Source of the DNA: an uncultured bacterium
GTDB lineage: Bacteria > Muiribacteriota > UBA9980
DNA length: 64,000 nt
Assembly (NCBI GenBank): GCA_964421195.1
Contig: CAYQWL010000001.1
Span: 5,203 to 69,202 of the forward strand
Direction: 5' to 3'
Below the pieces are notes generated by a model, which was not told the origin of the DNA, searched no databases, and worked only from the letters and a program-made list of their open reading frames with translations. The position numbers and the translations under genes are program-made. Shown in pieces: positions 6,054 to 64,000 of the stretch (within the stretch, counting starts at the first letter, position 1; the number at the start of each line of letters is the position of its first letter).

Positions 6054-6055
6054 TT

Positions 6056-12955: not shown

Positions 12956-13043
12956 GGCCGGCCCCCTTTCTTTACCCGAAAAAAGTAAAAAAATAGAAAA
13001 CCGAAATTTCACGAATTGAAAAATTTAATTATAAATAAATATA

Positions 13044-46557: not shown

Positions 46558-49500
46558 TTAAGGGTTAATTTTAATAATATACCAGGAGCGATAGGGAAGT
46601 AGCATTTCAAATTCATTTAAATCATAAACATATTTACCAAAACCGCCGGCATAAATTGAGCCATCCGTATCCACTGCCATGCTCATAACCGTATCAGTGA
46701 ATAAAACGCCAACCGAACTCCATTCACTTCCATTCCACTTAGCAATTTTTCCCAGAGTGCCATATTTTTGTATATTTTTATCAGCATCCGCCGGAGGGGC
46801 CACGCCGTTTAAATTTTTGAAACTTCCCGACGCATATAAGACGCCCTTCGAATCGATGGCGATATCATAAACCCAGTGATCAAAACCTGAACCGAGCGCT
46901 TCCCAGGACGAGCCGTTCCATTTAGCTATATAATTAACATCAACGCCTCCCGCTTTCTTAAACCAGCCGCCGGCATATAAATTACCGGCATTATCACATT
47001 TTAAAGCCACAACGCGTTCATCCATGCCCGTGCCAAGCGTATTCCATTTCGTGCCGTCCCAGTTAGCTATGTATTTGCCGTTATCGCTATAAGCGGCATA
47101 ATTAAAAGCGCCGCCGATATAAACATTATCATTTTTATCGATCGCTACGCTATAAACCACGTTACCGCCAACTTTATAAGGAGAAGTGGTGCCTTTACTA
47201 ACCGCGCCTTCGCCGACGGCCGACCATTTTGCGCCATCCCACTTAGCAAAATAATTAACGGCTATACAATCGCCATTACTCTGCTCGGCAAGATTAAAAT
47301 AACCGCCGACATAAACATTATCTTTCGAATCACAGGCAATAGCATCAGGATAACAAGTAGTATTATAACGTTGTATGCCCGCTTTATTTTTGTCGTCCAT
47401 TCCGATACCTTTACCGAGCGCCGACCATTTTGCGCCGTCCCATTTAGCTATACCGTTGACTTTAACCCCTCCGATTTCAGTAAAATAGCCGCCGGCGTAT
47501 ATATTGCCTTTTGAATCCGCCGCTAAAGCAGTAATGTTGGCATAATTAGTTACGCCGGTGCCGAGCCCGGACCAGCTCTGGCCATCCCATTTAGCGATCC
47601 TGTTTATCACGGTGCCAACATTGCTATTTATCTCATTATCGTTTATAACTTCGAGTGCGGCTTTAGTAAAAGAGCCGCCGGCATATATATTGCCGCGCCC
47701 GTCGCTTATAACTTTATAAACGGTGTTATTAAATCCGCCGCCGCCGACGCGCTCAAAATTTTTCGCTTTTTTCAGCGAAATTTTTAACAGCGCGGGCTCT
47801 TTCTGATTAATAGAAAATGAACGAACTACGATGAACACCGAATATTCAGCGTTTGCCGGCAGATTTTTGATAGTAAACGAAAGCTCGGTATCGGTATAGA
47901 TAGCTTTTATGCCGGACGCCGTGAGCGTTACACCCTCGATCGCTCCATTTACAACATTTTCCGAAGGAACGCTTTCAAGTCCGGCGGATGCGGGCACGAC
48001 GATATAATAAGCCGTGCCGTAGCGGTTTACTTTAAGCGATAATTTAACCGAAGTATCAGAATCTTTTTCAATTTTTGGATATCCAGGGCTCCATGCCGCG
48101 CTTGAACTTATTATCGTAAACGGTTCGGCGCATGCGGCCGTAGCGCGGTTACCAACTTTATCGACGACGCTTACGCTGATTTTCCCCGTAGATATATCAA
48201 GCGATGGTATCAGCCAGTTATAGGAACCGGTATTTTCGAGACCCGCTTCTACGGTCGCCCAGCTCAATCCGTTATAAAACGATATTGTAACAGGCTTTTC
48301 AGGCATTCCGTTAGAATCGGAGGCCGACCATTTAATCATTATTCTATAACCGCCGTTCATTTTATATCCTCCGAAGTCGTTCCGCAACTTGACGACCGGC
48401 GGCGTGGTATCTATTACAAAAGTATTGCCGTCAACTATATCGATCGCCGTGCCTTTTTCATCTATAAGCCCGACGAACGCGTCGCCATCCATAAAATCAG
48501 AACCATTATTATCGTTTATTACATAATCATAATACCAGGTTTTTTTGTCAGCGCCGGGTTCCATCCACTTTTGCTGAACATCGGCTTTGCCCGGCTGGTC
48601 TATCGATATTCGCGGGCCTTTGGCGCCTTCATAATCTTCGTTGAACGAAGCCGTGATACGCATTTTTCCGGCGCCGGCCGGGTTCGCGCTAAATGAAAGT
48701 TTAGCGTAGTTAGGTATCTTCGTTCCAACCAGGAATGTTTGATTATTCGGGCGTTTTGAAATATTGCCCGCCGGATCGGTTACGGAAGAAAGCACGACCA
48801 CCGCGCGTCCGTCTGCGAATTCGCCGGATTCTCCGGTTTTAACGAAATAATCATAAGTCCACAAGGAATTTGTCGCGCCGGGGCTCATCGCCGTATCGGT
48901 GAGTTCATAAGAGCCCTGCTGGAATATCGATATATACGGAATATAGCCTTCGGCGAGCGGTTCGGAATATTCGGCCGTTATAGTTAGTTTGCCCGGCCGC
49001 GCGGGATTAGCGCTATATGAAAGCCAGACGCCTGGCTGTCTGGTATCGATGGTAAAATGCCTGTTCGACGGCTGGCTGAAAATTTTTCCGAATTCGTCCG
49101 CTACCTGCGAGATTGAAACCGTCACATCGCCGTCAATATATTCACAGCCATTATCAGGTTTTATAGAATACTCATAAGTCCACACCCGACGGTTATTTGA
49201 AGGCGACATCTTCTGATCTCTGATATATTCAAGACCGGAAGTAATTATATTAATCCCTGGAGTAACGCCGTTTTTAACGTCCTTTGAAAATACCGCCGTT
49301 ATAATAAGTTTGCCTTCTCTGAATATATTCGAATCAGTCTGGTTTTCGTTGCCTCTGAGCAGCTGCTTGCCTCTATAGATTTCACTGCCATCGGCCGCGC
49401 GCCGCGGGACCGTCGGTACGAACGCATAAGAAAGCGATACGGCCGGCGAGGATGTATTAATCGTAAACGACGCGTTAGTAGGCTGCTGAGCGGCATTGCC

Positions 49501-52431
49501 GGCGGGATCGGACACTTCTGAAAGGCTTACCGATGCGATGCCGTCGATATATTTAGAGCCGTCGAATGCATTGACGTAATAGTCGTAATACCAGACGGCC
49601 GGAGCGGATTTATCGCGCGTCATCGCGGCGTTTTTAATATCTTCGGAACCCGGCTGGTCTATGCTGATTTTAACGGCGCTGCCGTCCGCTGGCAATTCCG
49701 AATACGAGGCCGTTATGCGCATAACGCCTTCTCCGGCGGGATTGGCGCTATATGAAAGCGACACGGAAGGCCGCGTGGTATCGATTATAAACGATACGCT
49801 CGATTTAGCGGAAAGCCCGCCTTTTTGGGCCGCGGCGGATACCTCGATAATATAACTGCCGTCTTCGCTCACAGATGCGCCTTTTTCAAAAGCGGCCGGA
49901 GCGCTTCCAAACTTAGTGAGCGTCGCGCTCGTCGTAACGCCATCAGTTTCGTTCCATGAAAGCGTAACGGGTTTATTATAATAAGCACCGTTCACCGCGC
50001 CCGTTATCTTCGGCGCGGCCGGACCGGTTTCAGTTTTAACGCCTTCTTTAGTAAAAGTAATCGACGCTTTACTCGTAAGCGGATTCGAATATTCGAATGA
50101 ATTGTTATAAACTGCCGTAGCGGTTATTTCAAGCGTATATTCACCGTCTTCTTTTATGATCGAATTTTTCGAATAATCGGCCGGCTGGCCGCCTTTTTTG
50201 GATAATTTAGCCGAGTACGAAGCGGCGGGGTCTTCGCTCCATGTAACGTAAACGCCATCTTCCTTCGTAAGCACCGACAGCGCGGGCGACTGCGGCGCGG
50301 CGGTATTGACCATAAATGAAATATCAGTTATATTGGTAAGGCCGTTCGCCGCGCGCGCCGTTACTACGAGCCGGTTCAGGCCGTTATACGATATCGGCGT
50401 GCCTTTTATATACTCGACGGGGCCGTTTTGACCGGCGGCATATAAAAACGCTTTAATAACCGCGCCGCGCTGGTCTTCCCAGCTCGCCGAAACCGGCGCC
50501 GTATATCCGCGTTTTGAAGCGACGCCGGTAACTACGGGCTTCGCCGGAGCGTCGGCGTTGATCGTAAAATTAAGAACCGAAGCGGATTTTAAGCCGTTCG
50601 ATTTCTTTTGCGCGTTGAGCTCTACACGATAGGAACCGTTCGCTGTGATAAGCGCGCCGTTTGAAAGCTGCTGCGGATTGCCATTATCTTTTATAACAAA
50701 CGCCTTCGTCGTTACGCCTAAAATTTCAGTCCATGAAATTTTAACGCCTTCAGAAACCGTGATGCCTTCTTCAGCGCCGCTTATTACAGGCGACGCCGGA
50801 GGCGTCTGGTCGATAGTAAAATTAATTTCAGTTTTCGAATCGAGGTTATTCGACATTTTAACGGCCTGCACAATAAGCCTGTAGCGGCCGTCTTCGTTTA
50901 TCGGATAACCGTTGCCGTAATTAAGCGGCGTCTGTTCGTCGTCTTTATAAAGATGCGACGAATAGAAAACTCCGGGCGCTTCCTTCCATGACGCTTTTAC
51001 GCCCGCCGCGTAAACCGCTTCGGCTTTAACGCCTTCGACCGCCGGCATATCAGGCGGCAGAGTATCTATCGTAAACGATAATTTAGAGCGGTTGGTAAGG
51101 CCGTTGGATTTCTTTTCAGCCTTCACTTCAAGCGAGTATTTGCCGTTTTTAGATATTAACGAGCCGTTTTTAAATTCAACGGGATTGCCGCCGTCTTTTT
51201 CGAGCAATGCGTAATAAGCGACGCCGTCTTCTTCAGGCCATGAAAGCGTTACGGCCTTCGCGCTTACCGCGCCTTCGAGCGCGCCCGATACTTTCGGAGC
51301 GAGCGGGCCGGAATAAAATCCGTCGGCCATACGACTGAAACGCATCGTCGATTTAGTAGAAAGACCGTTTAAAAGTTTTTTCGCGGTTACTTCGATTACA
51401 TATTTACCTTCTTCGGATATTTCGGCGTTTTTATCATAAGCCGCAGGCGCGCCGCCGTTTTTAGCGAGCGTAGCCGTGGTAGAGCATCCCTGCTGCTCGT
51501 TCCAGCTTACCACCGTCGGGCCGTTAAGCGGCGATTTTTCAACGATAGTTCCGCCGTAAGAAGGAGCGTTTTGCCCTTCGGCCGTTTTATTGATCAGGTC
51601 TATCAAAGGAGCCGCAGGCGAAGTTTTATCGATTATGAAAACCGCCGTGGTCGAGCTCGAAAATCCGTTCTGCTTTACCGCTGAAAGCGTGAATTCATAA
51701 CTTCCGTCGTCAATAACGGCTGTACCCTTCGAATATTCGCCGGTCGCGTCATTATCGCGCTTTATTTCGGCTTTATAATTTATACCGGATAATTCAGGCC
51801 AGTAAATAATCACCGGCGCCGAATAAACCGCGCCGTTAGTAAACCCGGCGAATTCAGGGACTTCAGGCGCCTTGCGGTCTATCGTAAAGCCTATGGTTTT
51901 AGAATTCGAAACGCCGCTTATATCGTTTTTGACGGTTAATTTCAGCGTATAATAGCCTTCTTCTGAAATTTTTTCGCCTTTTTTATAAACCGTTTCTTTA
52001 GAACCGTCGCGGGTATAAACGGCCGACGACGAAATGCCGGCTTCGTCCTGCCATGATGCGATTATATCTTCCGACGTATAAACGCCGTCTTTAACGCCGG
52101 TAATTTCAGGCACAGCCGGGACCGAGCGGTCTATTTTAAATTTAATCGACGCGCTCGACGATCTGCCGTTAGATTTATTGGTCGCGGTCACTTCAAGATA
52201 ATACGAACCTTCGAGGGTTATCGGTGAACCCGATTCATAAAACAGAGTTGTTTTTTCATCTTTAAACAATTTAGCGAGATAATTAACGCCTTCTGACTTT
52301 TCCCATGTAATGGTAACATTTTCAGAAGTAACGGCGTTATTGTCTATGCCCTTTAATACAGGCGCGGCAGGTTCGTTCTGATCGAGCGTAAATTTAACTC
52401 TCGAAACGGCTTTAAGCCCGTTATATTTCTT
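46558..52431 (-). pseudogene. Distal 1,958 codons of giant gene C, in frame downstream of an internal TAA. The ORF track reports 46558..52269 from an internal TTG. Content: β-sandwich modules, 4 'LSYSANPA' Ig-like units and a C-terminal β-propeller (IAKWDGxxWSxLG repeats).
   Basis: I translated 52270-52431 on the minus strand. There is no stop and the repeat module continues seamlessly ('EVTA*KKYNGLKAVSRVKFTLDQNEPAAPV...'). The β-propeller carries about eight 'IAKW(D/N)GxxWSxLGxG...GNxYxGGxF' blades. Confidence 0.7.
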
Positions 52432-55400
52432 TTACGCCGTCACTTCGAGTATATACTCGCCGTTTTCAATTATAGACGAATTTTTCTCATAAGGCGATTC
52501 TATATAACTCTGCGTGCTGGTCGTAGTAATTGCCTGCACTGAATTTTGAGACTGCTGCTTGAAATACTCTTCAAGCCGGCTTACAAAAAGTTTATTTCGC
52601 TTAAGTGTCGGGGATATATTTTCATCAAAAAACGAAAGGAATTCATCATTCCGGCCACGCATGATCATATCATAAAAATACCAGTCATTATTAGTCAACT
52701 GGAGCCTGTATATAGCCTCCAGAATATCATCATTCTGGCCATTGCCGCTCTGCTCCGTCTTAGTCTGAACGGTTGTTACTGATCCTGATTTAGTAATGCG
52801 CGCCGTGGTTTCGCAGCCGTCCTGGTCGTTCCACGACAATTTCAACTCGCCGCCGGCGGTCTCGCCGTTTTTAACGCCGCTTATAACCGGCGCGGCTGGC
52901 GATTTTTTATCTATGGTAAACGATATAACGCGCTTAGAAGATAATCCTGATTTAGGCTCTTTAGCTTCGAGTTCAAATGTGTACGAGCCGTCTTCGGTTA
53001 TCGCAGTTCCTTTTTTATAATCCGCGAACTCGCCGCCGTCTTTTTTAACGCGGCCGCCGGTAATAACGCTCGTTAAATCCTGCCAGTTAAGTGAAACGTC
53101 AAATCCCGTAACGGCCCCGTCTTCGACGCCGCGCACCTGCGGAGCTTCCGGCGCCACGAGTATCTGCATGGCTTCGCGGTTAAACGACACGGACGCTTTA
53201 GTTTCAAGCCCGTTAGCGGAGCGTTTGGCGGTAACCGTTACTATATAATTGCCTTTTTCCGATACCGCGCTGCCTTTGGCATAATTAGACTCCGCGCCGC
53301 CGTCTTTTGAAATTTTAGCCGTATAAACGACGCCTTCGGCTTCTGACCAGCTCACATAAGATTTGCCGTCTTCATCTTTTACGGATACGATCGGAACTTC
53401 AGGCGCGTTCATATCGATTATAAATGAAAGTTTTGAAGAAGACGAAAGCCCGTTCGTTTTTAACGCTTTAACCGTAAGAATATAACTTCCGTTTTCAGCC
53501 ACGGTGGAGTTTTTTGAATAAGGTTCGGGACTTCCGCCGTTTTTAGAAAGGCCGGCGCTGTATTTAATATCTGAAACTTCCTGCCATGAAAGTTTAACCG
53601 CGACGGCGGACACCGCGCCTTCGGTTATGCCCGTTATGACCGGCGCGGCTGGCGCATCGGTGTTAACTGTAAAATTAACCTTTTTAGATGCGCTGACGCC
53701 GGTCGAATTTTTCTTAGCGCTCAATTCGAGTACATAAGAACCGGATTCGCTTACCGGCGTGCCTTTTTTAAATTCAACGCCAGCCGCGCCGTTTTTATAC
53801 AACTTTGCGCCAAGCGTCACGCCTTCGATTTCATCCCAGGAAGGCTTAACTTCATAACCGTATATTCCATTTTCAGATACGCCCGTTATTTCAGGCAATT
53901 CCGGCTGGCGCGAATCTATCGTAAAATTAACCGATGATTCCGAAGTCAATAAATTACGGATGTTTTTAACGCTCACTTCGAGAGTGTAGGCGCCTTCTTC
54001 GCTCAATTCATAATTTTTAGCGTATTCAATTTTTAACCCGCCGTTTTTAACAAGACGCGCGCTCGATTCGCACCACTGTTGATCGTTCCAGAAAAGTTTA
54101 ACGGGGCCCGCCGTCACGGCGCCTTTTACAACGCCGGTTATAAGCGGCGCTGAAGGCGCGGTTTTATCGATAACGAATTTAACCGCCGAACTGTTCGACA
54201 GGCCTGTGCTGTTTTTAACGGCCTCGACCGTAAGGCTGTACTCGCCTTCTTCTTCAATTACCGTATCTTTTGTATAGTAAGCCTCATTGCCGCCTGTTTT
54301 AATTAATTTAGCGCGGGTGGTAACGCCTTCCTGCTCGTTCCAGCTAATCTGGACTTTACCGGCGGTATATGCGCCGTCGATTATGCCGCTTATTGCCGGC
54401 GCGGCGGGTTTCGCCTTATTTATCGTAAATTTTACGAGCGTTTTAGCCGTGCTGTTATTTAACGCGCGTGTCGCGCTTACTTCAAGAGAGTATTCACCGT
54501 CTTCAGTTATGACCGCGCCGTTTTGCAGTGCAGACGGAACGCCGCCGTTTTTAGAAATATAGCTCTGCAGCGATACTCCCGTACTGTCGCCGGCCGCTTC
54601 CCATTTAATCGTAACGTCATACGGCGTTATCGCGCCGTTTTCTACGCCGGAAACTACGGGCGGCGCAGGCGCTTCACGATCGATAGTAAACGATACGCTT
54701 TCTTTTGAAGTCTTCTGATTGGCGAGTTTCAGCGCCGTCACTTCTACAAGATATTTACCGCTCACGCTTATCATCGTGCCGCGGCCGTATCCGACCGCCG
54801 TGCCGCCGTTCTTACTTATAACGGCTGAATAAACTACACCGGCTTCCTCGCGCCACGACAGAACTACGTCGCGCGTTATCTGATCGCGCTTAGATTGAAT
54901 ATAACTATCTATCCATGCCTGATTTTCTTCCCGCATGTGAATATGATCAAAAATTATGCGCCTGCGTATATATGACAGATCAAGCTCGTCGTCAAGACCG
55001 GTTATTACAGGTTTTGCCGGAAGCGCCGAGTCTATTTTAAAACTGACCGCCGCCTTATTTTTAAGCCCGTTAAGCGCTTTTTCAGCGATTACTTCGAGAA
55101 TATAAGAGCCGTCCCGGGTAATTTGCGTATTTTTTTCGTAAAGAGACGCATCGCCGCCGTCTTTTTTAAGCAGCGCATAATATGAAACGCCCGAAACGCT
55201 TTCCCATGAAGCGAATACGGCATCGCTGTAATAACCGCCGTTATTAACACCGGTAATGACAGGATAATCCGGGCCGGCGTCAAATCCGGCGGGCGTTCTG
55301 TTAAAATAAAGAACGGCCGTAGATGAAAGCCCGTTGCGTTCTTTCAGCGCGGTTATAACGAGACTGAACTTCGACGCCTGCTCGTCGTCTATCTTGATAA

Positions 55401-58400
55401 CCGAGCCTTTTTCATAGTCGAATTCCTTCGATGAAGATACTTTTATCTTCGCGCTTATCTTAACGCCTTCTACTTCAGGCCATTCAAGGGCCGATTGGCC
55501 GTTTCCCTTATCTACATACTTAACTTCAGGCACGCGGGGCGCCGTATTATCTATTTCAAAACCGACCGCGCTGTCCTTTACAAGTCCGTTTTTCTTCCCG
55601 GCCGTTACTTTAACGCTGTATTTACCATTAGCAGCTACAGGCGAGCCTTTTACATAAGCGTAAGACCGGCCGCCTTCAGGCGTTACAACCGCGCTGTATT
55701 CATAATCTTCACGCGCTTCCCACGATACATATACCACGCCCGCGTTCACGGAACCGTCTTTCACGCCGCTTATTACGGGCGCTTCAGGATATACGCTATC
55801 GACGCTGAATTTTATAGTTTTTTTGTTGGATACGCCCGTAACATTATTTTTAACAGTGAGCGTTAAGCTATAAGAACCATCGCCTTCTATGAACGAGCCT
55901 TTTAAATATTCCGACGCCGTACCGCCGTTTTTCGAAATTAATGCGGTAACGCTTTCGCCGTCTTTTTCTTCCCAGGCGATGCGCGGCCCTGAAGCTAAAA
56001 TATCGCCGTCTTTTACGCCGGTTATAACCGGCACTTCAGGAACGGTCTTATCTATGGTAAATGAAAGCGACGACATATTCGAAAGCCCGTTAGATATCTT
56101 TTTCGCCGTTACTTCAATAACATAGGCGCCTTCCTCGCTTACTTCGGAATCTTTATTAAATATCATAGCGGCGCCCTGGTTTTTATATAGTTTCGCAAAA
56201 TATTCGACGCCGTTTACTTCCTGCCATGAAAGATTAACCGACTTCGCCGTTACCGTCTTATTTTCAACGCCGCTTATTACGGGCGCATCGGGTTTTTCTT
56301 TGTCTATAGTGAAAGATACTTTCGATACAGTTACCATCAAATTGCCGGTTTTTTTAGCGTAAACTTCTAATGTATAAACGCCTTCGTCTTTTATAGCGGA
56401 ATTTTTTTCGTATTCAACGCTGTCCATCAATGACAGCGAAGAAGTATTTTTAAATAATTTCGCCGTAGTTTCGACTCCGGCCTGTTCGTTCCAGCTCACT
56501 TTAACTTCAGACGCGGTTATCGCGCCTTCAGTTATACCGCTAATTACGGGCGCGGGCGGGGCTGTTTTATCGATAGTGAATGTTACGAAACTTTTCGAAG
56601 TCAGTCTGGTAAACGAATCTACCGCTTCCACTTCCACGATATAAACGCCTTCTTCATTTACCGGCGCGCCTTTTTCATAAGACGCGGCGTTACCGCCGTT
56701 TTTCTTAATAGAAGCCTTCGTGGTAGTGCCGTCGGCGGTTACCCATTCAATTTTTACGCTCTTTCCGACCACGGCATTATTTTCGACGCCTATGATTTCA
56801 ACTGCGCGCGGACCGACGACAAGATCGGTGAATAATCTGTTGAAATTAGCCTTAGCTATCGCTATAACGCCGTTATCGACGCGGCGCGCGGTGAGCGTAA
56901 GCGCGTATGCGCCTTTTTCATTAACAGGCGTTTTCATTATATAATCGACGGGCTCACCGCCGTCTTTTGCCAATTTAGCCGAATACGATACGCCGGGCTG
57001 TTCTTCCCACGAAACAACCGAAGCGCCGCCTTCGTCGGCGACCGTTATAAACGGCGTATCAGGGGCATCTTTATCGATTTTAAATTTTATGATTTTTGAT
57101 TTTTTTAATCCGTTCGGTTTAATTGCCGTTACGGTAACCGTATAAGAACCGGGCAATGATATTACGCTGTTTTTAAGATATCTTTCAGCCCGGCCGCCGT
57201 TTTTTGAAATTTCGGCGCGATAAACGATTTTATTCTTAGCGTTCGGGCCGTATAAAGGCGCGCCGAAATCACTTTCATCCCAGGCGATTCTTACTTCCGA
57301 TGAAGTAAGCGCGCCGTCTTCTATACCTGAAACCACAGGCGCTAAAGGCTCACTCTTATCAACGACGAATGAAATCGAACGGCTGTTTAGAGTGCCGGTA
57401 TCGTTTTTCTTAGCCTTTAGCGTCAAAACATAATTTCCGTCTTCACCGATCGGCGTTTTCTTGATGTATAAAGACGCTTCGCCGCTGTTTTTGCTTAATT
57501 CAGCCGTAAGCGTTACGCCTTCTATATCGTCCCAGCCGGCCGCGACTTCAGATGCGTTCTGGCTGTTATCGGCAATACCGCTTATATAGGGAACTTCGGG
57601 TACGCTCGAATCGATTTTAAATGGAAGTTTTTCAACTGCCGAAAGCCCGTTTTTCTCGTTCACCGAAGTTACTTCAAGCGCGTACGAACCATTCTCGGTT
57701 ATTTCATAGCCTTTAGCGTAATCAGCTTTAAGGCCGCCTTCTTTTATAAGCTTCGCCGTCGTTTTAGTCCACAGGGCATCCTGCCAGTAAAATATAACCG
57801 GCCGGGCCGATATTTCATCGGTGCCTATGCCTATTACGGCCGGAACTACGGGCGGCGTACGGTCGATCACGAAAGCCGCCGAAGCGCGATTGGTCGTATT
57901 ATTAGCCGTTTTTCTGACCAGCACTTCGAGAGTATATGCGCCTTCAACGCTTAATATCGAATTTTTTAAATATTGCGACGCTTCATTATTAAATATTATC
58001 TGCGCAGAAGATGAAACGCCTTCCTGCTCGTTCCATGTGAGCGAAACTTCATAAGGCGTTATGGCGCCGTCTTTTACGCCCGAAATAACGGGCGGCGCGG
58101 GCGCGGCGTTATCGTTGCGAATCTCATAAAACGCCGTTACCACTTCGGAATCGAGCATTTTATCTTTAACGGCGACCGCTTTGAATTGGACCGAACGGTT
58201 TATAGTAATCGGGCCGGAATATATTTCGCCGTTTTCAGCGCCGGGCGTTGTGCCGTCGGTGGTATATATAATTTTTGCATCTTTAACCTGAGTAATAATT
58301 TTTACCTTGAATTCGTTATATGAAGTGTATTTGCCCTCCTGCGGCGAAAAAACCGGCGCGGCAACTTCTTCGAGCACCGGCCCGACTATGTTTACATCAA

Positions 58401-60474
58401 AAAATCCGGACGCCGCGGCCGAATCATTCATACCTTCTTTTATAACTACGGCTTTAACGGTTACCGGTTCCATAATAACGAGCGGCTCGCTATAAACAAA
58501 ACCGTTGTTATACGACGGCGCGCTGCCGTCAAGCGTATATTTGATAAGCGCGCCTTCTACGGCGCTTACTATAGCGACGCTCTGCTTAGAAATAAACGCT
58601 CCGGGAGCAGGATTAAATACTGGCGCGGGAGCAGTTTCCGAAGCTATATTTACGTCGTAAAACGCCGCCGTAACCGCGGAATCAAGCATGCCGGCCTTGA
58701 ACGCGGCCGCTTTCAGAGACATACGTTTATCGATAGCGATCGCGCCCGAATAAAGCGCGCCGTTTGTTTGCGTCGGCAGCGTGCCGTCGGTAGTATATTT
58801 TATCGACGCGCCCGCCGTGGCGCAGCTTATCGCAACGCTCTGCGCGCGCGAAAACGATCCGCCCGCGAAGCTGAATACCGGAGCTTCAACCCGCGGCTTC
58901 GGTATGCTTATTAAATAAGGCGCGTTATTTACTATCGAAGATATGCCGTTAAATACGGCCACGGCCTTAATCGTCGTATCAGAAGCGAGCGTGACCGGCG
59001 ATTCGTAACGCGTACCGTAAGACGGCGACGGCTCGCCGCCGTCGAGCGTGTAATAAATTTCGCAGCCGGGAGTTTTTGAGTAGATTGAAACTATCTTCGC
59101 GCTTTTATAAATGCCGGCTGGCGGATCGAATACAGGCGGCTGGACCGTAGTTACGCCTTCTTCTACCTTCGGTTTCGCGCCATCGGTCACTTCGGTTACA
59201 TCGACGCCTTTCCTGCCGTTTTCACCCACTAAATTGCCTATCTTGAAAGTGACTTCCTTCGGGTCGGAGCCGAGAACGCTGGTTACCGCTTTATAAGTAT
59301 TCGTATCAACCCGGACCGCTTCGACGGTCCTGTTGTTAATAACTACAACCGGAGGAACTATCAAAAGCCGGCTGGTAGTAAACGATAACTGGAGTTCATC
59401 GCCGATTCTCACCGTTTTCGGAGTTAAAACCACGCTTGTAACCGATGGCGGCTCGTTATCGGATGCGCCGCCTATATTGTCCGCGCCGCCGTCTATTACG
59501 GCTACCGTCGAGCGCCCGTCTATGCGTGTGCCGTTTAAATCTATGCTGGTCGTTATTCCAAGCTCTACGGCATTTTGCTGGACTTTTAAATTTTTAAGGG
59601 TTAATACATAATCGGAAATAACGCCCGCCGCGCTCGGCACGACTAATTTCTCGCGCGTATTTTCGAATACGGCGCTTTTTTCCGCCGCGCTCATTTCGTT
59701 GGTAACAAGAACCGCTTTAATAGCATCGACGGCCTTAGCCATTTCGCTGATAACGCCCGAACCCGCTTTATTTTCTATAACCGTATCAACTGGCAGGCGG
59801 TCGCCCGAACCGAGCACGCGCACGACAACCTCCTGAGAACCTTCACTGCCAGTCAAAGTAACGAGCGGAACGCTTATTTCCATCCTGTTGTCATTGGCAA
59901 GAACGGCGCGCGCCGTCGATTTTGAGTCTATCAAAACGCCTTTCACATATATCTTTTTCACTTCTTTCGGAATATCCGAATACGCGGGCGCCTGTCCCGG
60001 AATGCATGACAGCACCACTTTATTCAATATTTTGCTCTTTATGGTTATAAACGGTATCTTACGGCCTTCGCCAATATTGATAACGGTTCTGTATTTATAA
60101 CGATATAACGAACTTTCGCTTGTTTCAATGACCACAGGCGCGAGCTCACGGGAAAGCGCCGGATCGTCGCGGTCGATAACAGCTATGGTAAATTCTTTTG
60201 AATCGCCGAATTCGACGGCGCGATTAGCGCCCGCCGGTGCGTCAGGCGCTATTATCGCCGTATTTTGGGCTATTTCATCAGGTATGGGGCCTTCTATTAT
60301 AAGCTGCTTTTCAGCGATGTCAGGCTGCGTTCCGCCGCCAGTCGAAGGAACTCCACCGCCGCCGCCGTCGCCACAGCCCGCTAACGGTAAAACAAATAAA
60401 ACAAATAAAACAAATAAAAATAAAATACGCATTAAAACATAAGGTTTACAATTTTGAAATAATAAATTTTTCAT
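52432..60474 (-). CDS. Giant surface lipoprotein C, proximal 2,680 codons: lipobox, Gly-rich linker, 4 CHB_HEX_C-like domains and about 21 tandem ~90-aa β-sandwich modules. It ends at an in-frame TAA.
   Basis: Signal 'MRILFLFVLFVLFVLPLAGC' then GDGGGGGVPSTGGG. Four 'IKYTTDGTLPTQTNGALYSG'-type units. Modules of the form 'VSWxEQEGVxYxAKLxKNGG...YxKGxxIxEEGxYxLEVTAxKKxxNGLSxxSxVSFTIDKTxPxAPVIxGV'. RBS AAGGAG. Confidence 0.85.
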   Translation of the reverse strand: MKNLLFQNCKPYVLMRILFLFVLFVLFVLPLAGCGDGGGGGVPSTGGGTQPDIAEKQLIIEGPIPDEIAQNTAIIAPDAPAGANRAVEFGDSKEFTIAVIDRDDPALSRELAPVVIETSESSLYRYKYRTVINIGEGRKIPFITIKSKILNKVVLSCIPGQAPAYSDIPKEVKKIYVKGVLIDSKSTARAVLANDNRMEISVPLVTLTGSEGSQEVVVRVLGSGDRLPVDTVIENKAGSGVISEMAKAVDAIKAVLVTNEMSAAEKSAVFENTREKLVVPSAAGVISDYVLTLKNLKVQQNAVELGITTSIDLNGTRIDGRSTVAVIDGGADNIGGASDNEPPSVTSVVLTPKTVRIGDELQLSFTTSRLLIVPPVVVINNRTVEAVRVDTNTYKAVTSVLGSDPKEVTFKIGNLVGENGRKGVDVTEVTDGAKPKVEEGVTTVQPPVFDPPAGIYKSAKIVSIYSKTPGCEIYYTLDGGEPSPSYGTRYESPVTLASDTTIKAVAVFNGISSIVNNAPYLISIPKPRVEAPVFSFAGGSFSRAQSVAISCATAGASIKYTTDGTLPTQTNGALYSGAIAIDKRMSLKAAAFKAGMLDSAVTAAFYDVNIASETAPAPVFNPAPGAFISKQSVAIVSAVEGALIKYTLDGSAPSYNNGFVYSEPLVIMEPVTVKAVVIKEGMNDSAAASGFFDVNIVGPVLEEVAAPVFSPQEGKYTSYNEFKVKIITQVKDAKIIYTTDGTTPGAENGEIYSGPITINRSVQFKAVAVKDKMLDSEVVTAFYEIRNDNAAPAPPVISGVKDGAITPYEVSLTWNEQEGVSSSAQIIFNNEASQYLKNSILSVEGAYTLEVLVRKTANNTTNRASAAFVIDRTPPVVPAVIGIGTDEISARPVIFYWQDALWTKTTAKLIKEGGLKADYAKGYEITENGSYALEVTSVNEKNGLSAVEKLPFKIDSSVPEVPYISGIADNSQNASEVAAGWDDIEGVTLTAELSKNSGEASLYIKKTPIGEDGNYVLTLKAKKNDTGTLNSRSISFVVDKSEPLAPVVSGIEDGALTSSEVRIAWDESDFGAPLYGPNAKNKIVYRAEISKNGGRAERYLKNSVISLPGSYTVTVTAIKPNGLKKSKIIKFKIDKDAPDTPFITVADEGGASVVSWEEQPGVSYSAKLAKDGGEPVDYIMKTPVNEKGAYALTLTARRVDNGVIAIAKANFNRLFTDLVVGPRAVEIIGVENNAVVGKSVKIEWVTADGTTTKASIKKNGGNAASYEKGAPVNEEGVYIVEVEAVDSFTRLTSKSFVTFTIDKTAPPAPVISGITEGAITASEVKVSWNEQAGVETTAKLFKNTSSLSLMDSVEYEKNSAIKDEGVYTLEVYAKKTGNLMVTVSKVSFTIDKEKPDAPVISGVENKTVTAKSVNLSWQEVNGVEYFAKLYKNQGAAMIFNKDSEVSEEGAYVIEVTAKKISNGLSNMSSLSFTIDKTVPEVPVITGVKDGDILASGPRIAWEEKDGESVTALISKNGGTASEYLKGSFIEGDGSYSLTLTVKNNVTGVSNKKTIKFSVDSVYPEAPVISGVKDGSVNAGVVYVSWEAREDYEYSAVVTPEGGRSYAYVKGSPVAANGKYSVKVTAGKKNGLVKDSAVGFEIDNTAPRVPEVKYVDKGNGQSALEWPEVEGVKISAKIKVSSSKEFDYEKGSVIKIDDEQASKFSLVITALKERNGLSSTAVLYFNRTPAGFDAGPDYPVITGVNNGGYYSDAVFASWESVSGVSYYALLKKDGGDASLYEKNTQITRDGSYILEVIAEKALNGLKNKAAVSFKIDSALPAKPVITGLDDELDLSYIRRRIIFDHIHMREENQAWIDSYIQSKRDQITRDVVLSWREEAGVVYSAVISKNGGTAVGYGRGTMISVSGKYLVEVTALKLANQKTSKESVSFTIDREAPAPPVVSGVENGAITPYDVTIKWEAAGDSTGVSLQSYISKNGGVPSALQNGAVITEDGEYSLEVSATRALNNSTAKTLVKFTINKAKPAAPAISGIIDGAYTAGKVQISWNEQEGVTTRAKLIKTGGNEAYYTKDTVIEEEGEYSLTVEAVKNSTGLSNSSAVKFVIDKTAPSAPLITGVVKGAVTAGPVKLFWNDQQWCESSARLVKNGGLKIEYAKNYELSEEGAYTLEVSVKNIRNLLTSESSVNFTIDSRQPELPEITGVSENGIYGYEVKPSWDEIEGVTLGAKLYKNGAAGVEFKKGTPVSESGSYVLELSAKKNSTGVSASKKVNFTVNTDAPAAPVITGITEGAVSAVAVKLSWQEVSDIKYSAGLSKNGGSPEPYSKNSTVAENGSYILTVKALKTNGLSSSSKLSFIIDMNAPEVPIVSVKDEDGKSYVSWSEAEGVVYTAKISKDGGAESNYAKGSAVSEKGNYIVTVTAKRSANGLETKASVSFNREAMQILVAPEAPQVRGVEDGAVTGFDVSLNWQDLTSVITGGRVKKDGGEFADYKKGTAITEDGSYTFELEAKEPKSGLSSKRVISFTIDKKSPAAPVISGVKNGETAGGELKLSWNDQDGCETTARITKSGSVTTVQTKTEQSGNGQNDDILEAIYRLQLTNNDWYFYDMIMRGRNDEFLSFFDENISPTLKRNKLFVSRLEEYFKQQSQNSVQAITTTSTQSYIESPYEKNSSIIENGEYILEVTA
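60389..60420. repeat. 9-bp tandem repeat (AACAAATAA ×3) encoding the (FVL)3 core of the giant-gene signal peptide
   Basis: The C of each unit falls at 60393, 60402 and 60411 (period 9). Confidence 0.6.
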
Positions 60475-61133
60475 AAAAACTCCTTAATAAAATATTTTTT
60501 TATTTTTTTAATTTATTTTTCTATCTAATTTTACCTGATTCATTAATAAGCCTGAAGCAAAGGTATAAAATACAAAAACAACTGCAAATAAAATAAAACT
60601 TATAAGCCATAAAAATACACCATCGTTTTTAAAAAAATCACATTTTTAAAAACGACAAATTAATAAAAATAAAATAAGGTAACGAAAAACATCATAAGTT
60701 AATGACACTAACATAAATAAGCACTTAACGAAACGAATTATTATGAGCATATTTTTTAATATAAAATAATACGTTATATATTTATTTTATCGCTTATAAT
60801 TTCTAATGGTTATTATAAAAAATTCACATATTAAAACTACTCGCTTAAACTTTAAAAAAATTATAATTTTAATAAAGTAAAATTAAAATGAATTATACTA
60901 AAATATGATAACAAATACAATATTTTATATTTTTTATTTTTTTATTTTTTCCGACATTATATTAACGAACCTGCTATAAAAACTAAGAAAACACACGGAA
61001 CCTGGAGTCGATAATCAAAATCCTTTTAAACACCTTTAAATATTTTATTAATTTTCAAAAATTGACTTTTCTTAGAATAAACTAATCAATATAATACGGC
61101 AAACATTAAACAGACTCACAAATAATAAAAAAA

Positions 61134-64000
61134 TTATATTATCTGTCTTTCGGCTAATTTTTTAAACTCGCCGCCGTATTTCATTAATTCGTCATAAGTA
61201 CCGCTTTCTATAAGCCGGCCGCCGTCTATTACATAAATTTTATCGGCTTTTATAATAGTGCTTAGCCTGTGTGCTACCACTATTCTTGTAGCGCGCAGTT
61301 TTTCAAGGCTTTCCGATACTACCGCCTGCGTCTTATTCTCGAGCGCGCTGGTAGCCTCGTCAAATAAAATAATACGGGGCTTTTTAACCAATGCTCGCGC
61401 TATAAGTATTCTCTGCTTCTGTCCGCCGGATATACAGGAAGCCCCTTCGCTTATAACGGTATGCATCTGCATGGGCATCATTTTAATATCGCCGGCAAGC
61501 CCGGCGCGTTCGGCCGCTTCCCATGCATCATCTATTGTAAGCATTGAAGAACCGATTATATTCGATAAAATAGTGCCCGCCATAAGCTGACTATTTTGAA
61601 GCACCGCGCCGATCTGACGTCGAACGGCTCTTATATCTATTGCCCGAAGATCGCAACCGTCATAAAAAATAGAACCGGAAACGGGCCGGTCAAATCCAAG
61701 AAGAAGCCTCATCAACGTGGATTTTCCGCTTCCCGACGGACCGACTATAGCGGCGAATTCACCAGGTTTTATACTCAACGATATATCGTTTAAAATATTT
61801 ATAAGGCCGCCTTCATATTTAAAAGTAACGCCGCTTATTTCAACCGCGCCGTTTAATTCGCCCGGATCCTCGCCGCCCGCGTCAAATTCAGGAACCGCTT
61901 CAAGTATCGGCCGGGCGCGGTCATAAAGTATAAATACATTTAAAAACGACATCATTGAAGTAGAAATTTCGATTATCGACGAAAAAAAAGCGGTAAAAGC
62001 TGAATTAAAAGCCACAAATGTACCGGAACTCATAACGCTATTTTCACCCGGATAATTTATTATACACCAGAAAAAAACTCCGGTACATACGCTTATATAA
62101 ACCGAATTAAAAACCGCCGTTAAATTATTCAATATGTAAACACGTACGCCTTTTTTTTCTTTAAAAAGCGACGCCCATAAACCAAAAGCGCGTTTTTCCG
62201 CTCCGGCGACGCGAAATTTAGCTATCGCGGTAATTATCGAAAACACGAGTCCTGAAAGTTTTCCTTCAAGTTTTATTATTTTTTTCGAATAATTATACTG
62301 TATAATAAGAACGGACGTATAAAAAAATACGGCCAGCATGGTAAGCGCAACGGCCACAAAAGCGAGTTTCATATTATAATAAAACAATAACAAAAAATTT
62401 AAAACTGAAAAAGACCCGGTAAGAAGCGAACTGAAAATCGTCGTTGAAATCGTCTGCCTGACGGTATTAACACTCATCGCCCGCATCGCGAGATCGCCCG
62501 TGGAAAATTTTCTGAAAAAAGGCGCGGGCAAAGCGATAAGTCTGTCCCACACAGCCGCCTGCAATGAAGCGTCAAGCTTATTTTCAAAACGCATAACCGC
62601 TACGGAACGAAAAAGCTGAAACAAAAAAAGACAGACGGAAGCGGATATAAGAATGAGCGTCATTTGCAGCATCTGCGAACGTTCGATTTCGGGTATTAAC
62701 GAATCAAACGCGATGCCGCTGGCCATAGGCAGCAGCATGTTAATAATACCGATAACTATCCCGGCGAAAGCCATCATAATTGAATCGCGAAAAACTCCGG
62801 CGCCGAGTACATAAGAACCAATATCGGCTATAGTAAGAGAACGCATGGGAAGCGGCCTGTAAAACATATAAGCGAAGCCGGAAACCATAGCGGCTTTTTT
62901 CGCATCTACCGCGACGGGCCTGGCGGAACCGGGCAGATACAATTTATAACCCTTAAAAGACGATGGTATAAGCGCCGCGGGCCGGCCGTCTTCACAAAAA
63001 ACAAGAAGAGGGCCGGCGTCTTTATTCCACCAATCATCGCGTAAAAGCACCTTACGGTAACGAACCATCGAAACGCACGCTATCCGCTCTATAAAATCAG
63101 AAACGGATAATTCATTATCAGTTGCCGCGGGCGGTATTTTCATTTTTATACCGGCAGCATCGCCTATCATCATACAGGCGGCGGCAAGCCCGTCAGTTGC
63201 ATCATATTTTCGAGCGGTTTCATCAAATTCAGAATCGATAATAGACGCAAACAAAGCAAACGAATTATCGACTATAGCCGCGTCGCGCGAACACTTTTTT
63301 AAAAGCCGCGCATACTCTTCCGCGCTCTCATTTTCATGTTTTTCAATTAAAAGCCATAAAAATATTGAATGAAAAGCGTCAAAAGATGACCGCTCTTTTG
63401 TAAGAGATAAAAATTGACGGGTATCGAGCGCGGTTACAACGGGTTGACCGGCGGAGGCCGGATCGCCTTCAGATAAAGCGGAATCGCCGGCCAGTTCAAC
63501 AACGGGGCCCGAATCGAAACCGGACGAATTAATTTTAAACCAGAAACGATCGGTAACCGGAAAATAACCGGAATGTCCTTTAAAAAAGGCCGCGTAACTC
63601 GATAATATATCGATTTCGCCTTCAATTAATTTAATCCATAAAACTTCGCCTGTTCTGGCGCCGTAACATGAACCCGATGATAATTTAAGATTTTCGGAGG
63701 CATATAAAAATTCAAGATTGTTCGGAGGCAGTTTATAGCCGAGAAGAGCAAAAGTCAAATTTTTCGCCCAGCCATCAACAAGCGCGGCATGAAAATCGGC
63801 CATAACCGGATCGTCATTATTTTCATATAAAAAATCAAGATTTTTTTCTTCGAGCTCCGCTTCAGGCAAAGCGGACGCCGTTATTTTGAACCTTCCGCCG
63901 GAACGATAATCAAAACCAGCCATCATACAGCCTTTTTCAACGGAAAACAGCCATTCTTTACGCCCGTACGAACCGTCAGAAAGCAAACGCGTTCGATAAA
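61134..64000 (-). CDS. ABC exporter (6-TM permease + ATPase) with an N-terminal non-catalytic C39-like domain and an additional N-terminal domain; 5'-partial because the ORF runs off the window edge
   Basis: Walker A 'GPSGSGKST'. ABC signature 'LSGGQKQR'. Walker B 'ILFDEATSALE'. The pre-TMD region 'PLLVFCEDGRPAALIPSSFKGYKLYLPGSARPVAVDAKKAAMVSGFAYMFYRP' resembles the end of the HlyB/CvaB C39 domain, but the catalytic Cys and His are replaced (TDGLAAAC; LLVF). The frame stays open upstream of the TTG at 63986. Confidence 0.8.
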   Translation of the reverse strand, partial: YRTRLLSDGSYGRKEWLFSVEKGCMMAGFDYRSGGRFKITASALPEAELEEKNLDFLYENNDDPVMADFHAALVDGWAKNLTFALLGYKLPPNNLEFLYASENLKLSSGSCYGARTGEVLWIKLIEGEIDILSSYAAFFKGHSGYFPVTDRFWFKINSSGFDSGPVVELAGDSALSEGDPASAGQPVVTALDTRQFLSLTKERSSFDAFHSIFLWLLIEKHENESAEEYARLLKKCSRDAAIVDNSFALFASIIDSEFDETARKYDATDGLAAACMMIGDAAGIKMKIPPAATDNELSVSDFIERIACVSMVRYRKVLLRDDWWNKDAGPLLVFCEDGRPAALIPSSFKGYKLYLPGSARPVAVDAKKAAMVSGFAYMFYRPLPMRSLTIADIGSYVLGAGVFRDSIMMAFAGIVIGIINMLLPMASGIAFDSLIPEIERSQMLQMTLILISASVCLFLFQLFRSVAVMRFENKLDASLQAAVWDRLIALPAPFFRKFSTGDLAMRAMSVNTVRQTISTTIFSSLLTGSFSVLNFLLLFYYNMKLAFVAVALTMLAVFFYTSVLIIQYNYSKKIIKLEGKLSGLVFSIITAIAKFRVAGAEKRAFGLWASLFKEKKGVRVYILNNLTAVFNSVYISVCTGVFFWCIINYPGENSVMSSGTFVAFNSAFTAFFSSIIEISTSMMSFLNVFILYDRARPILEAVPEFDAGGEDPGELNGAVEISGVTFKYEGGLINILNDISLSIKPGEFAAIVGPSGSGKSTLMRLLLGFDRPVSGSIFYDGCDLRAIDIRAVRRQIGAVLQNSQLMAGTILSNIIGSSMLTIDDAWEAAERAGLAGDIKMMPMQMHTVISEGASCISGGQKQRILIARALVKKPRIILFDEATSALENKTQAVVSESLEKLRATRIVVAHRLSTIIKADKIYVIDGGRLIESGTYDELMKYGGEFKKLAERQII

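Follow-up and report, generated by a model that had tools for sequence, protein, structure and literature searches.

A probable second, non-cutting ABC subunit of an NHLP-type peptide exporter at the window edge of an uncultured Muiribacteriota contig

Haft, Basu and Mitchell showed in 2010 that a three-gene cassette, encoding an HlyD protein and two ABC proteins, ABC1 and ABC2, co-occurs with NHLP and Nif11 precursors (PMC2887384). Wang, Fewer and Sivonen (2011, PMC3140520) then described, in cyanobacterial clusters of groups IV, V, and VII, an extra ABC transporter that has a CAP_ED-like module at its N-terminus and no active peptidase, and that is encoded beside a short C39 transporter and HlyD; in group VII, ABC1 and ABC2 are fused. 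In both papers, the ABC2 subunit is described as being without a peptidase domain. HetC of Nostoc PCC 7120 is a long-type PCAT, a peptide-exporting ABC transporter in which a single recognisable cNMP-like domain precedes an active C39 peptidase; this domain binds ppGpp and is indispensable in vivo (PMC10986499). HlyB (3zua, 8dck) works with an HlyD-type adaptor and has an N-terminal C39 fold that lacks the catalytic Cys but keeps the His; it is a homodimer that exports RTX proteins carrying C-terminal signals.

The window analysed here is a stretch of 64,000 nucleotides. On its reverse strand, an open frame extends from a stop codon at 61134-61136 to the window edge with no upstream stop, as seen in the ORF list and translation, and it is a genuine gene. 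The database protein P0001, of 983 residues, is 100% identical to this frame, and therefore just 29 codons (87 nt) lie past 64000. The sequence-only reading had the gene running off the window, as it does, and placed more than 250 residues ahead of the C39-like domain, partly within the window. About 297 residues do precede that domain, but with 29 codons missing about 268 of them are already inside, so that the implication that most of the N-terminal domain lies beyond the edge fails. An internal start at a pair of ATG codons (MMAGFDY, 63906-63926) is ruled out, as homologues align across the 53 preceding residues.

The assignment of the gene comes from the NCBIfam models. The protein scores 853.4 bits against TIGR03797, for which the curated equivalog cutoff, applied to the whole-protein score, is 709.4, and profile positions 2-686 of 686 are matched by window residues 269-953. 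TIGR03797 is the NHLP bacteriocin export ABC transporter permease/ATPase subunit (NHLM_micro_ABC2), an ABC exporter TMD plus NBD without an active peptidase, and this is what the window protein contains. Other models fall well short: TIGR01846 (HlyB) gives 270.7 bits against a cutoff of 725.55, TIGR03796 gives 305 against 853 with a match that starts only at the TMD, TIGR01193 gives 223 against 524, and the LssB, PrtD, and bacteriocin_ABC models are all far under their cutoffs. Pfam finds ABC_membrane and ABC_tran in the window protein, and neither Peptidase_C39 (PF03412) nor cNMP_binding. Judged by these models, the gene is the second, non-cutting ABC subunit (ABC2) of an NHLP-type peptide exporter and a typical representative of an established family. 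Nothing essential sets it apart from the subunit described in PMC2887384. It shares the TMD-NBD core, and its relatives share the place in the order HlyD-ABC1-ABC2 and the association with LanM, radical-SAM, and double-glycine precursor genes. The window member is the most divergent ABC2 of its own clade in the alignment, with a private insertion of 30 residues, lineage-specific and modelled with low confidence, and with SALE in place of SALD as the D-loop. The features are collected in Table 1.

Table 1. Features of the ABC2 gene and of the adjoining spacer in window coordinates; P0001 numbering refers to the full-length protein.
Feature	Position	Strand	Basis
ABC2 gene (TIGR03797), 5'-truncated by window end	61134..64000	-	ORF list, P0001 identity, NCBIfam
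N-domain beta-barrel 1 + helix, P0001 30-118 in window	63732..64000	-	CRP/FNR-like cyclic-nucleotide-binding fold, degenerate binding cassette
N-domain beta-barrel 2, P0001 119-228	63402..63731	-	model secondary structure; weak similarity to barrel 1
30-aa insertion in barrel 2	63438-63527	-	alignment, P0001 only
Long helical linker, N-domain to C39-like domain, P0001 229-297	63195..63401	-	model helices 229-283, 285-297
Degenerate C39-like domain, P0001 298-417 (predicted)	62835..63194	-	structure model, profile alignment; start of TIGR03797 profile
ABC exporter transmembrane domain	61977..62780	-	Pfam ABC_membrane, E 4.7e-13, window residues 407-674
Nucleotide-binding domain	61137..61856	-	Pfam ABC_tran, E 3.2e-32, window residues 736-884
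Walker A	61716-61742	-	motif mapping
ABC signature	61410-61433	-	motif mapping
Walker B + catalytic Glu	61338-61373	-	motif mapping
H-loop	61257-61280	-	motif mapping
AT-rich 659-bp non-coding spacer, exporter gene to giant lipoprotein gene	60475..61133		sequence, short-ORF list

The segment of P0001 that follows the linker is modelled with a pLDDT of 86.5, and its best Foldseek matches are the C39 domains of ABC transporters, namely HlyB (8dck, E 3.8e-4) and the C39-like domain (CLD) of HlyB (3zua, E 6.9e-4). The first ~120 positions of the TIGR03797 model fold, in the window protein, as a C39 domain without the catalytic residues. The residues were mapped by hhalign of 101 CLDs against 73 ABC1 C39 domains, and because this match is weak (E 0.006, probability 6%) the positions are approximate to within one or two residues. 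The catalytic Cys column falls at Gly299, beside Asp298, the His column at Arg368, the Asp column at Leu384, and the Gln column at Lys293. In the family, a Cys near the site is found in 1 of the 101 CLDs and a His in 5, whereas the partner ABC1 proteins keep the catalytic Q/C/H/D in 71-73 of 73 sequences. The model and the missing residues support the view that ABC2 still has a C39 fold, but with the catalytic Gln, Cys, His, and Asp gone, and that it is non-proteolytic. The sequence-only reading had reached the same conclusion from Cys to Asp or Ala and His to Leu substitutions, which are not matched in this weak alignment. In lacking the catalytic residues and a Pfam Peptidase_C39 match, and in having an extra N-terminal module of 297 residues, the window protein differs from PCAT1, ComA, and LahT (4ry2, 8vp3, 5xe8, 6mpz). 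It differs from HlyB in that the His is also lost, and in its probable pairing with a peptidase-active paralogue and its probable double-glycine-leader cargo.

CAP and PKA bind cAMP or cGMP through a phosphate-binding cassette, Gly-Glu followed by Arg-Ser/Thr-Ala. The extra N-domain of ABC2 folds, in the model, as a CRP/PKA-type beta-roll plus helix, the fold of a cyclic-nucleotide-binding (CNB) domain, and its cassette is degenerate. G52 and G57 are conserved, the Glu position is F, T, M, or A, and an Arg occupies its position in 7 of 21 sequences, followed there by I or L instead of Ser/Thr; the canonical Glu and Arg-Ser/Thr are missing. The earlier suggestion that the N-terminus resembles a cNMP-binding domain is supported at the level of the fold and does not extend to the binding cassette or to Pfam, in which cNMP_binding (PF00027/CAP_ED) gives no match to the window protein at E<=0.1 and matches 4 of 21 relatives weakly (best E 5.7e-4). 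Neither the N-domain nor the C39-like region finds anything meaningful in a PDB profile search, and therefore the CNB and C39 homologies rest on predicted folds and not on sequence. The second barrel is poorly modelled over P0001 190-211 (pLDDT<50).

The N-domain is conserved, being carried by 2369 clusters at 50% identity. About one third of ABC2 proteins have no N-domain at all, so the core mechanism does not depend on it. In some family members, one to three FHA domains precede the N-domain, as would suit a role in regulation; long N-domain matches suspected of being ABC1-ABC2 fusions proved to be FHA-domain extensions. Unlike the transporters of the cyanobacterial groups, the window protein belongs to a MAG from outside the cyanobacteria, and among its named relatives the closest are Candidatus Wallbacteria; its N-domain is without the Pfam cNMP_binding match, and the cassette of its lineage adds Peripla_BP_6 and an outer-membrane factor. 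HetC shares the order of a CNB-like domain ahead of a C39-fold domain, but the window protein combines a dead peptidase with a double barrel and a degenerate cassette.

The setting of ABC2 is best seen in its relatives. In 75 of 83 related loci, spread over many phyla, ABC2 directly follows an ABC1 gene (TIGR03796, with a C39 peptidase), and often the stop codon of ABC1 overlaps or abuts the start codon of ABC2; in five or six further loci, a contig end carries part of an ABC1 gene. An NHLP-type HlyD gene is upstream of ABC1 in 66 of the 75. Two loci, L002 and L007, have an ABC2 without an adjacent co-directional ABC1. In the loci L081, L083, L085, and L086, at 54-68% identity, the order is (OEP)-Peripla_BP_6-HlyD-ABC1-ABC2, with no OEP visible in the L086 cassette. 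For L081, NCBIfam confirms HlyD as TIGR03794 (342 bits) and ABC1 as TIGR03796 (1082 bits). LanM or radical-SAM genes adjoin the cassettes of the closest relatives, and next to LanM in L085 is a gene for an 87-residue double-glycine leader peptide with ELSDDELSLAAGG. ABC1 is the most conserved gene of the cassette, at 82-85% identity among the nearest relatives. A scan of genome contigs found relatives that, among the matches listed, are all at <=49% identity.

One likely partner from the same genome can be named. P0202 is an NHLP-type HlyD, 73% identical to that of L081; it is encoded outside the window and, like P0001, is an NCBI singleton on a contig of 108355 nt. No ABC1 on a contig of that length appears among the best 120 relatives of the L081 ABC1 or in the ten closest clusters. 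An intact ABC1 in this genome is therefore no more than presumed from the cassettes of the relatives. Within the window, there is no NHLP, Nif11, or other double-glycine-leader precursor gene. One of the two sequence-only readings, that the exporter serves an unseen bacteriocin or NHLP-type substrate beyond 64000, gains support from the TIGR03797 match, from the HlyD-C39-ABC-ABC2 order of the relatives, and from P0202. The genes that had been suggested as signs of such a system are found in part: the membrane-fusion protein probably as P0202, the TolC-like gene in close relatives only, and a GG-leader ORF in L085.

We therefore consider it likely that the gene product is the second ABC half-transporter of an NHLP/Nif11-type export cassette made up of HlyD, ABC1, and ABC2. 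The rest of the cassette, that is ABC1, HlyD, a periplasmic binding protein, and a TolC-like outer-membrane factor, would lie just past 64000, together with RiPP enzymes and double-glycine-leader precursor genes. ABC1 and ABC2 would pair as an asymmetric heterodimeric exporter; we infer the heterodimer from the neighbouring positions of the two genes, whose stop and start codons overlap or touch in some loci, and from the published fusion. The leader would be cut after Gly-Gly by the ABC1 peptidase, while the inactive CLD of ABC2, by analogy with the HlyB CLD, may dock leader or cargo without cutting. The CNB-like N-module may act as a regulatory input that gates export on a ligand. It is tempting to go further and to propose, tentatively and with rather less than even confidence, an obligate asymmetric heterodimeric PCAT in which only one of the two C39 domains is live. 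The dead one would hold the unusually long leader of the NHLP/Nif11 type, and the CNB-like double barrel of ABC2, to which some lineages add FHA domains, would be a ligand- or phospho-signal-gated switch that licenses export. The ABC2 NBD is predicted to be catalytically competent. In a family-wide survey, the Walker B Glu, the signature, and the H-loop are canonical in both ABC1 and ABC2, and therefore there is no asymmetric-site signature.

That survey result is also what homodimeric exporters display, and it favours a different arrangement, in which ABC2 is a separate homodimeric exporter, either a self-immunity or efflux pump acting on the mature peptide or a second channel taking some of the products, that shares HlyD and the outer-membrane factor. 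ABC2 has its own domain of the cargo-docking type, two loci do without an adjacent co-directional ABC1, and the best 120 relatives and ten closest clusters include no ABC1 from a 108355-nt contig. Against this stand the tight ABC1-ABC2 tandem in the great majority of the loci, the published co-occurrence of the three genes (PMC2887384), and the natural ABC1-ABC2 fusion (PMC3140520), and we regard a homodimeric ABC2 as unlikely. Still less probable is that the locus is in decay or has been rearranged, so that ABC2 and HlyD remain but ABC1 has been split, has become a pseudogene, or lies elsewhere, and the system is inactive or rewired. This would account for the finding of HlyD on a contig of that length and not of the better conserved ABC1, and for the divergence of P0001 with its unique insertion and D-loop change. 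But ABC2 is an intact frame of 983 residues with all the ATPase motifs, and the absence of ABC1 from the best 120 is weak evidence, since an assembly frameshift that broke the gene in two would lower its score to beneath the range covered.

Directly downstream of the exporter gene, on the same strand, is the locus of the giant proteins. These have the N-terminal lipoboxes LAGC and FTGC, in agreement with the lipoprotein signals read earlier from the sequence, and consist of Ig-like/CHB_HEX_C repeats; a motif count finds 0-1 GGxGxD motifs and no RTX repeats. The spacer (GC 0.36) contains 11 promoter-like sites, where 6.6 +/- 2.4 are expected, which is not a clear enrichment, and no terminator-like site was found in it by a promoter/terminator scan. 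The giant lipoprotein gene has its own ribosome-binding site, AAGGAG, and the downstream neighbours of ABC2 are different ones in each close relative. These observations support the conclusion that the giant Ig-repeat lipoproteins are unrelated to the exporter, being predicted Sec/SPII substrates of a separate transcription unit and not its cargo, as the sequence-only reading had also suspected. A further alternative, foreshadowed there by the mention of an RTX-like substrate, is an HlyB-type transporter whose CLD chaperones a large substrate with a C-terminal signal, RTX or adhesin and possibly one of the adjacent giant proteins. It has in its favour the Foldseek matches to HlyB and the position of the giant-protein locus but is very improbable in view of the HlyB, LssB, and PrtD scores, the lipoboxes and repeat content of the giant proteins, the spacer with its separate ribosome-binding site, and the varying downstream genes.

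The family was defined in 2010, and the gene is readily annotated from existing models; its presence flags a RiPP or bacteriocin cluster that probably starts just beyond the window end. At the level of the family, the "peptidase-less" second transporter appears to retain a dead C39 fold and, in many members, an N-terminal sensor-like module that is very widespread and so far uncharacterised. Together, the dead fold and the sensor-like module suggest, as a hypothesis open to test, that the peptide exporter is an asymmetric heterodimer under regulation. If the obligate asymmetric PCAT proposed above is correct, published descriptions of ABC2 as being without a peptidase domain would need correcting to state that it carries a pseudo-peptidase, and the system would be a regulated peptide exporter new to the structural and biochemical literature.

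The exporter gene ABC2 occupies a minus-strand frame that is open from its stop codon to the end of the window, with no stop upstream. The sequence-only reading had the gene running off the window; it does, but the overrun is small. A full-length database protein, P0001 (983 aa), is identical to the window's ABC2 across all 954 in-window residues, so the gene leaves the window by only 29 codons. P0001 begins MLFKLETKDNF..., in register with the starts of homologues. Translation does not begin at an internal Met pair, since the alignment with homologues extends upstream of it.

In the window's ABC2, Pfam recognises two domains, the transmembrane part of an ABC exporter at window residues 407-674 and an ABC ATPase at 736-884, and neither Peptidase_C39 nor cNMP_binding. 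The protein is a member of NCBIfam TIGR03797, [quoted passage not shown] (853.4 bits versus a curated cutoff of 709.4), with window residues 269-953 matching positions 2-686 of the 686-position profile. Every other NCBIfam model falls far under its cutoff: TIGR03796, the model for the C39-peptidase transporter ABC1, scores 305 versus 853 and has no alignment ahead of the membrane domain, HlyB-type TIGR01846 scores 271 versus 726, and bacteriocin_ABC scores 223 versus 524. The family that ABC2 joins is already known, as the "Trans" component of a three-gene transport cassette whose phylogenetic profile Haft et al. tied to leader peptides of the nitrile-hydratase-like and Nif11-like kinds (PMC2887384). 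In order, ABC2 carries an N-terminal module, a C39-like domain, the membrane domain and the ATPase, the last with intact Walker A, signature ISGGQ, Walker B with its Glu, and H-loop. Its D-loop reads SALE; at least 90% of relatives have SALD.

The region in which a non-proteolytic C39-like domain had been proposed coincides with the start of the TIGR03797 profile, at P0001 residue 298. A structure model of residues 285-445 (22 homologues as input, pLDDT 86.5) gave as top Foldseek matches HlyB (E 3.8e-4) and the isolated HlyB C39-like domain (E 6.9e-4, 20% identity), followed by PCAT1. At the sequence level hardly any kinship to C39 can be seen: searching the PDB with a profile of the region gave no match, and hhalign of 101 ABC2 C39-like domains against 73 genuine C39 domains from ABC1 gave E 0.006. 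The alignment runs collinearly for about 135 columns and sets the catalytic Gln, Cys, His and Asp of ABC1 opposite Lys293, Gly299 (beside Asp298), Arg368 and Leu384 of P0001, uncertain by about 1-2 residues; these differ from the substitutions named in the sequence-only reading. The four catalytic residues are kept in 71-73 of the 73 ABC1 sequences, and in the ABC2 family a Cys lies near the site in only 1 of 101 and a His in 5 of 101. With these residues lost, the predicted C39 fold cannot act as a cysteine protease, as had been proposed.

The closest ABC2 relatives are 54-68% identical, and the named ones are Candidatus Wallbacteria. Their gene order is outer-membrane factor, Peripla_BP_6, HlyD adaptor, ABC1 and, last, ABC2 (no OEP gene was seen in L086); in L081, HlyD matches TIGR03794 at 342 bits and ABC1 matches TIGR03796 at 1082 bits. 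In a survey of 83 loci, one genome per species, ABC1 lies directly upstream of ABC2 on the same strand in 75, with a fragment cut by the contig end in 5-6 more, and HlyD precedes ABC1 in 66. A LivJ-like periplasmic binding protein (Peripla_BP_6), which is outside the published cassette, recurs within or right after these genes in several phyla. Upstream neighbours include a radical-SAM gene in L081 and an acetyltransferase with LanM in L083 and L085. Beside the latter pair in L085, an 87-aa ORF has a classic double-glycine leader, ELSDDELSLAAGG followed by AG.... Its 36-aa core is WW-domain-like (LPPGW...Y.N..TGE) and has no Cys, which lanthionine formation needs. The genes 3' of ABC2 vary by relative: a GAF histidine kinase, an ankyrin protein, a Gly/Asn/Ser-rich secreted protein, or a radical-SAM gene with prepilin-like genes, the latter in L086 being two near-identical 141-aa N_methyl genes.

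P0202, an NHLP-type HlyD, is 73% identical to that of L081. Like P0001, it is an NCBI-only singleton on a contig of 108355 nt, and no part of the window encodes it, so the adaptor gene is almost certainly on ABC2's contig, outside the window. Among the best 120 matches and the ten nearest clusters, no ABC1 sits on a 108355-nt contig, which is unexpected because ABC1 is the most conserved cassette gene. An ABC1 split by a frameshift would score under the matches listed; it is also possible that the partner is missing or decayed in this genome. Family membership, the relatives' cassettes and P0202 favour the suggestion that the substrate is a bacteriocin or NHLP-type peptide encoded upstream, beyond the window; the rest of the window holds nothing else resembling RiPP machinery.

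Coordinates of features in the window and in loci of other genomes
Feature	Sequence	Position	Strand
ABC2, in-window part	window	61134-64000	-
ABC2 stop codon	window	61134-61136	-
ABC2 D-loop	window	61338-61340	-
ABC2 barrel 2 insertion (P0001 187-216)	window	63438-63527	-
Internal Met pair	window	63906-63926	
Three large ORFs	window	38552-60474	-
Large ORF without signal peptide	window	46558-52269	-
Gap between large ORFs	window	52270-52431	
2680-aa lipoprotein ORF	window	52432-60474	-
TldD/PmbA-type pair	window	4614-7405	+
HAMP + adenylate/guanylate cyclase	window	7408-9075	-
816-aa ankyrin protein	window	10562-13012	-
HNOBA + guanylate cyclase	L081	14149-15903	-
Ankyrin protein after ABC2	L083	12955-13512	
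87-aa leader ORF	L085	1124-1387	
Radical-SAM and two prepilin-like genes, directly after ABC2	L086	14270-17210	
Peripla_BP_6, close relative	L081	5287-6450	
Peripla_BP_6, close relative	L083	5182-6429	
Peripla_BP_6, close relative	L085	7452-8633	
Peripla_BP_6, close relative	L086	6506-7744	
Peripla_BP_6	L004	12977-14167	
Peripla_BP_6	L017	4051-5280	
Peripla_BP_6	L051	13835-15016	
Peripla_BP_6	L072	13249-14409	

The tight tandem arrangement, together with a natural ABC1-ABC2 fusion reported in Trichodesmium-type clusters (PMC3140520), suggests a heterodimer of ABC1 and ABC2. The two may instead form two homodimers: the ATPase sites are canonical in both, and thus no sequence signature tells one arrangement from the other, but the tandem and the fusion argue for the heterodimer. 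In such a heterodimer, ABC1 would remove the leader after Gly-Gly and the N-terminal module of ABC2 would regulate the cycle. The dead C39 domain would supply a non-cleaving docking site, like the HlyB C39-like domain, which docks its own substrate without cleaving it.

Downstream of ABC2 on the same strand are three large ORFs with Ig-like, CHB_HEX_C/Fn3-associated and lectin-like domains. Lipoprotein signals open two of them (LPLAGC, FNFTGC), each has 0-1 GGxGxD motifs, and they carry a separate AAGGAG ribosome-binding site beyond a 659-bp spacer (36% GC) without a credible ORF. These features, with the variable downstream genes of relatives, bear out an exporter unlinked to the lipoproteins, and the near-lack of GGxGxD motifs and the low HlyB-type score speak against the RTX or type I secretion alternative. 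The 2680-aa ORF stops in the middle of a repeat of about 90 aa (...GEYILEVTA, then stop), and the next begins mid-repeat at TTG; the two look like pieces of one gene encoding about 4600 aa, with a stop, a frameshift or an assembly error in between. Elsewhere the window encodes a protein made almost entirely of ankyrin repeats, of a size uncommon in bacteria; an ankyrin-repeat protein also directly follows ABC2 in L083. The window's TldD/PmbA-type metallopeptidases belong to a housekeeping pair of many bacteria known to process microcin B17 leaders (PMC10885120).

Residues 1-297 of P0001 are conserved among long ABC2 members from Cyanobacteria, Acidobacteriota, Actinomycetota, Pseudomonadota, Chlamydiota and others. 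A profile search recovered the domain in 2369 clusters (50% identity; 1692 of them at E<=1e-10), nearly always as the N-terminal part of a protein about 955-1000 aa long; about one third of ABC2 proteins (~725 aa; mostly Bacillota and Coriobacteriia) lack it. The earlier suggestion of a cNMP-binding-like N-terminus holds at the fold level, with a weak Pfam match in 4 of 21 relatives (best E 5.7e-4) and none in the window protein itself. The binding cassette retains its Gly-x-x-x-x-Gly but not the Glu and the Arg-Ser/Thr with which CAP and PKA bind the cyclic phosphate, and therefore we would not predict binding of cAMP or cGMP. In barrel 2, a 30-aa insertion rich in Gly, Ser, Asp and Pro (pLDDT<50) is private to the window's ABC2. 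Cyclase genes lie in the window and, in the closest relative, 1.4 kb downstream of ABC2, which is worth noting beside a CNB-like domain and may be coincidence. Some ABC2 proteins (P0443, P0406, P0442) have one to three phosphothreonine-binding FHA domains ahead of the N-domain. The module agrees with Wang et al., who described a CAP_ED-type N-terminus on the additional, "peptidase-less" transporter found in bacteriocin clusters of cyanobacteria (PMC3140520); in the PCAT HetC, a comparable domain that binds ppGpp is required in vivo (PMC10986499). Our best guess is a regulatory role. Two points are mildly new, at the family level only: ABC2 has a pseudo-peptidase in place of the "missing" peptidase domain, and its sensor-like N-module, widespread and uncharacterised, is sometimes FHA-extended, an extension that hints at export tied to Ser/Thr-kinase signalling.
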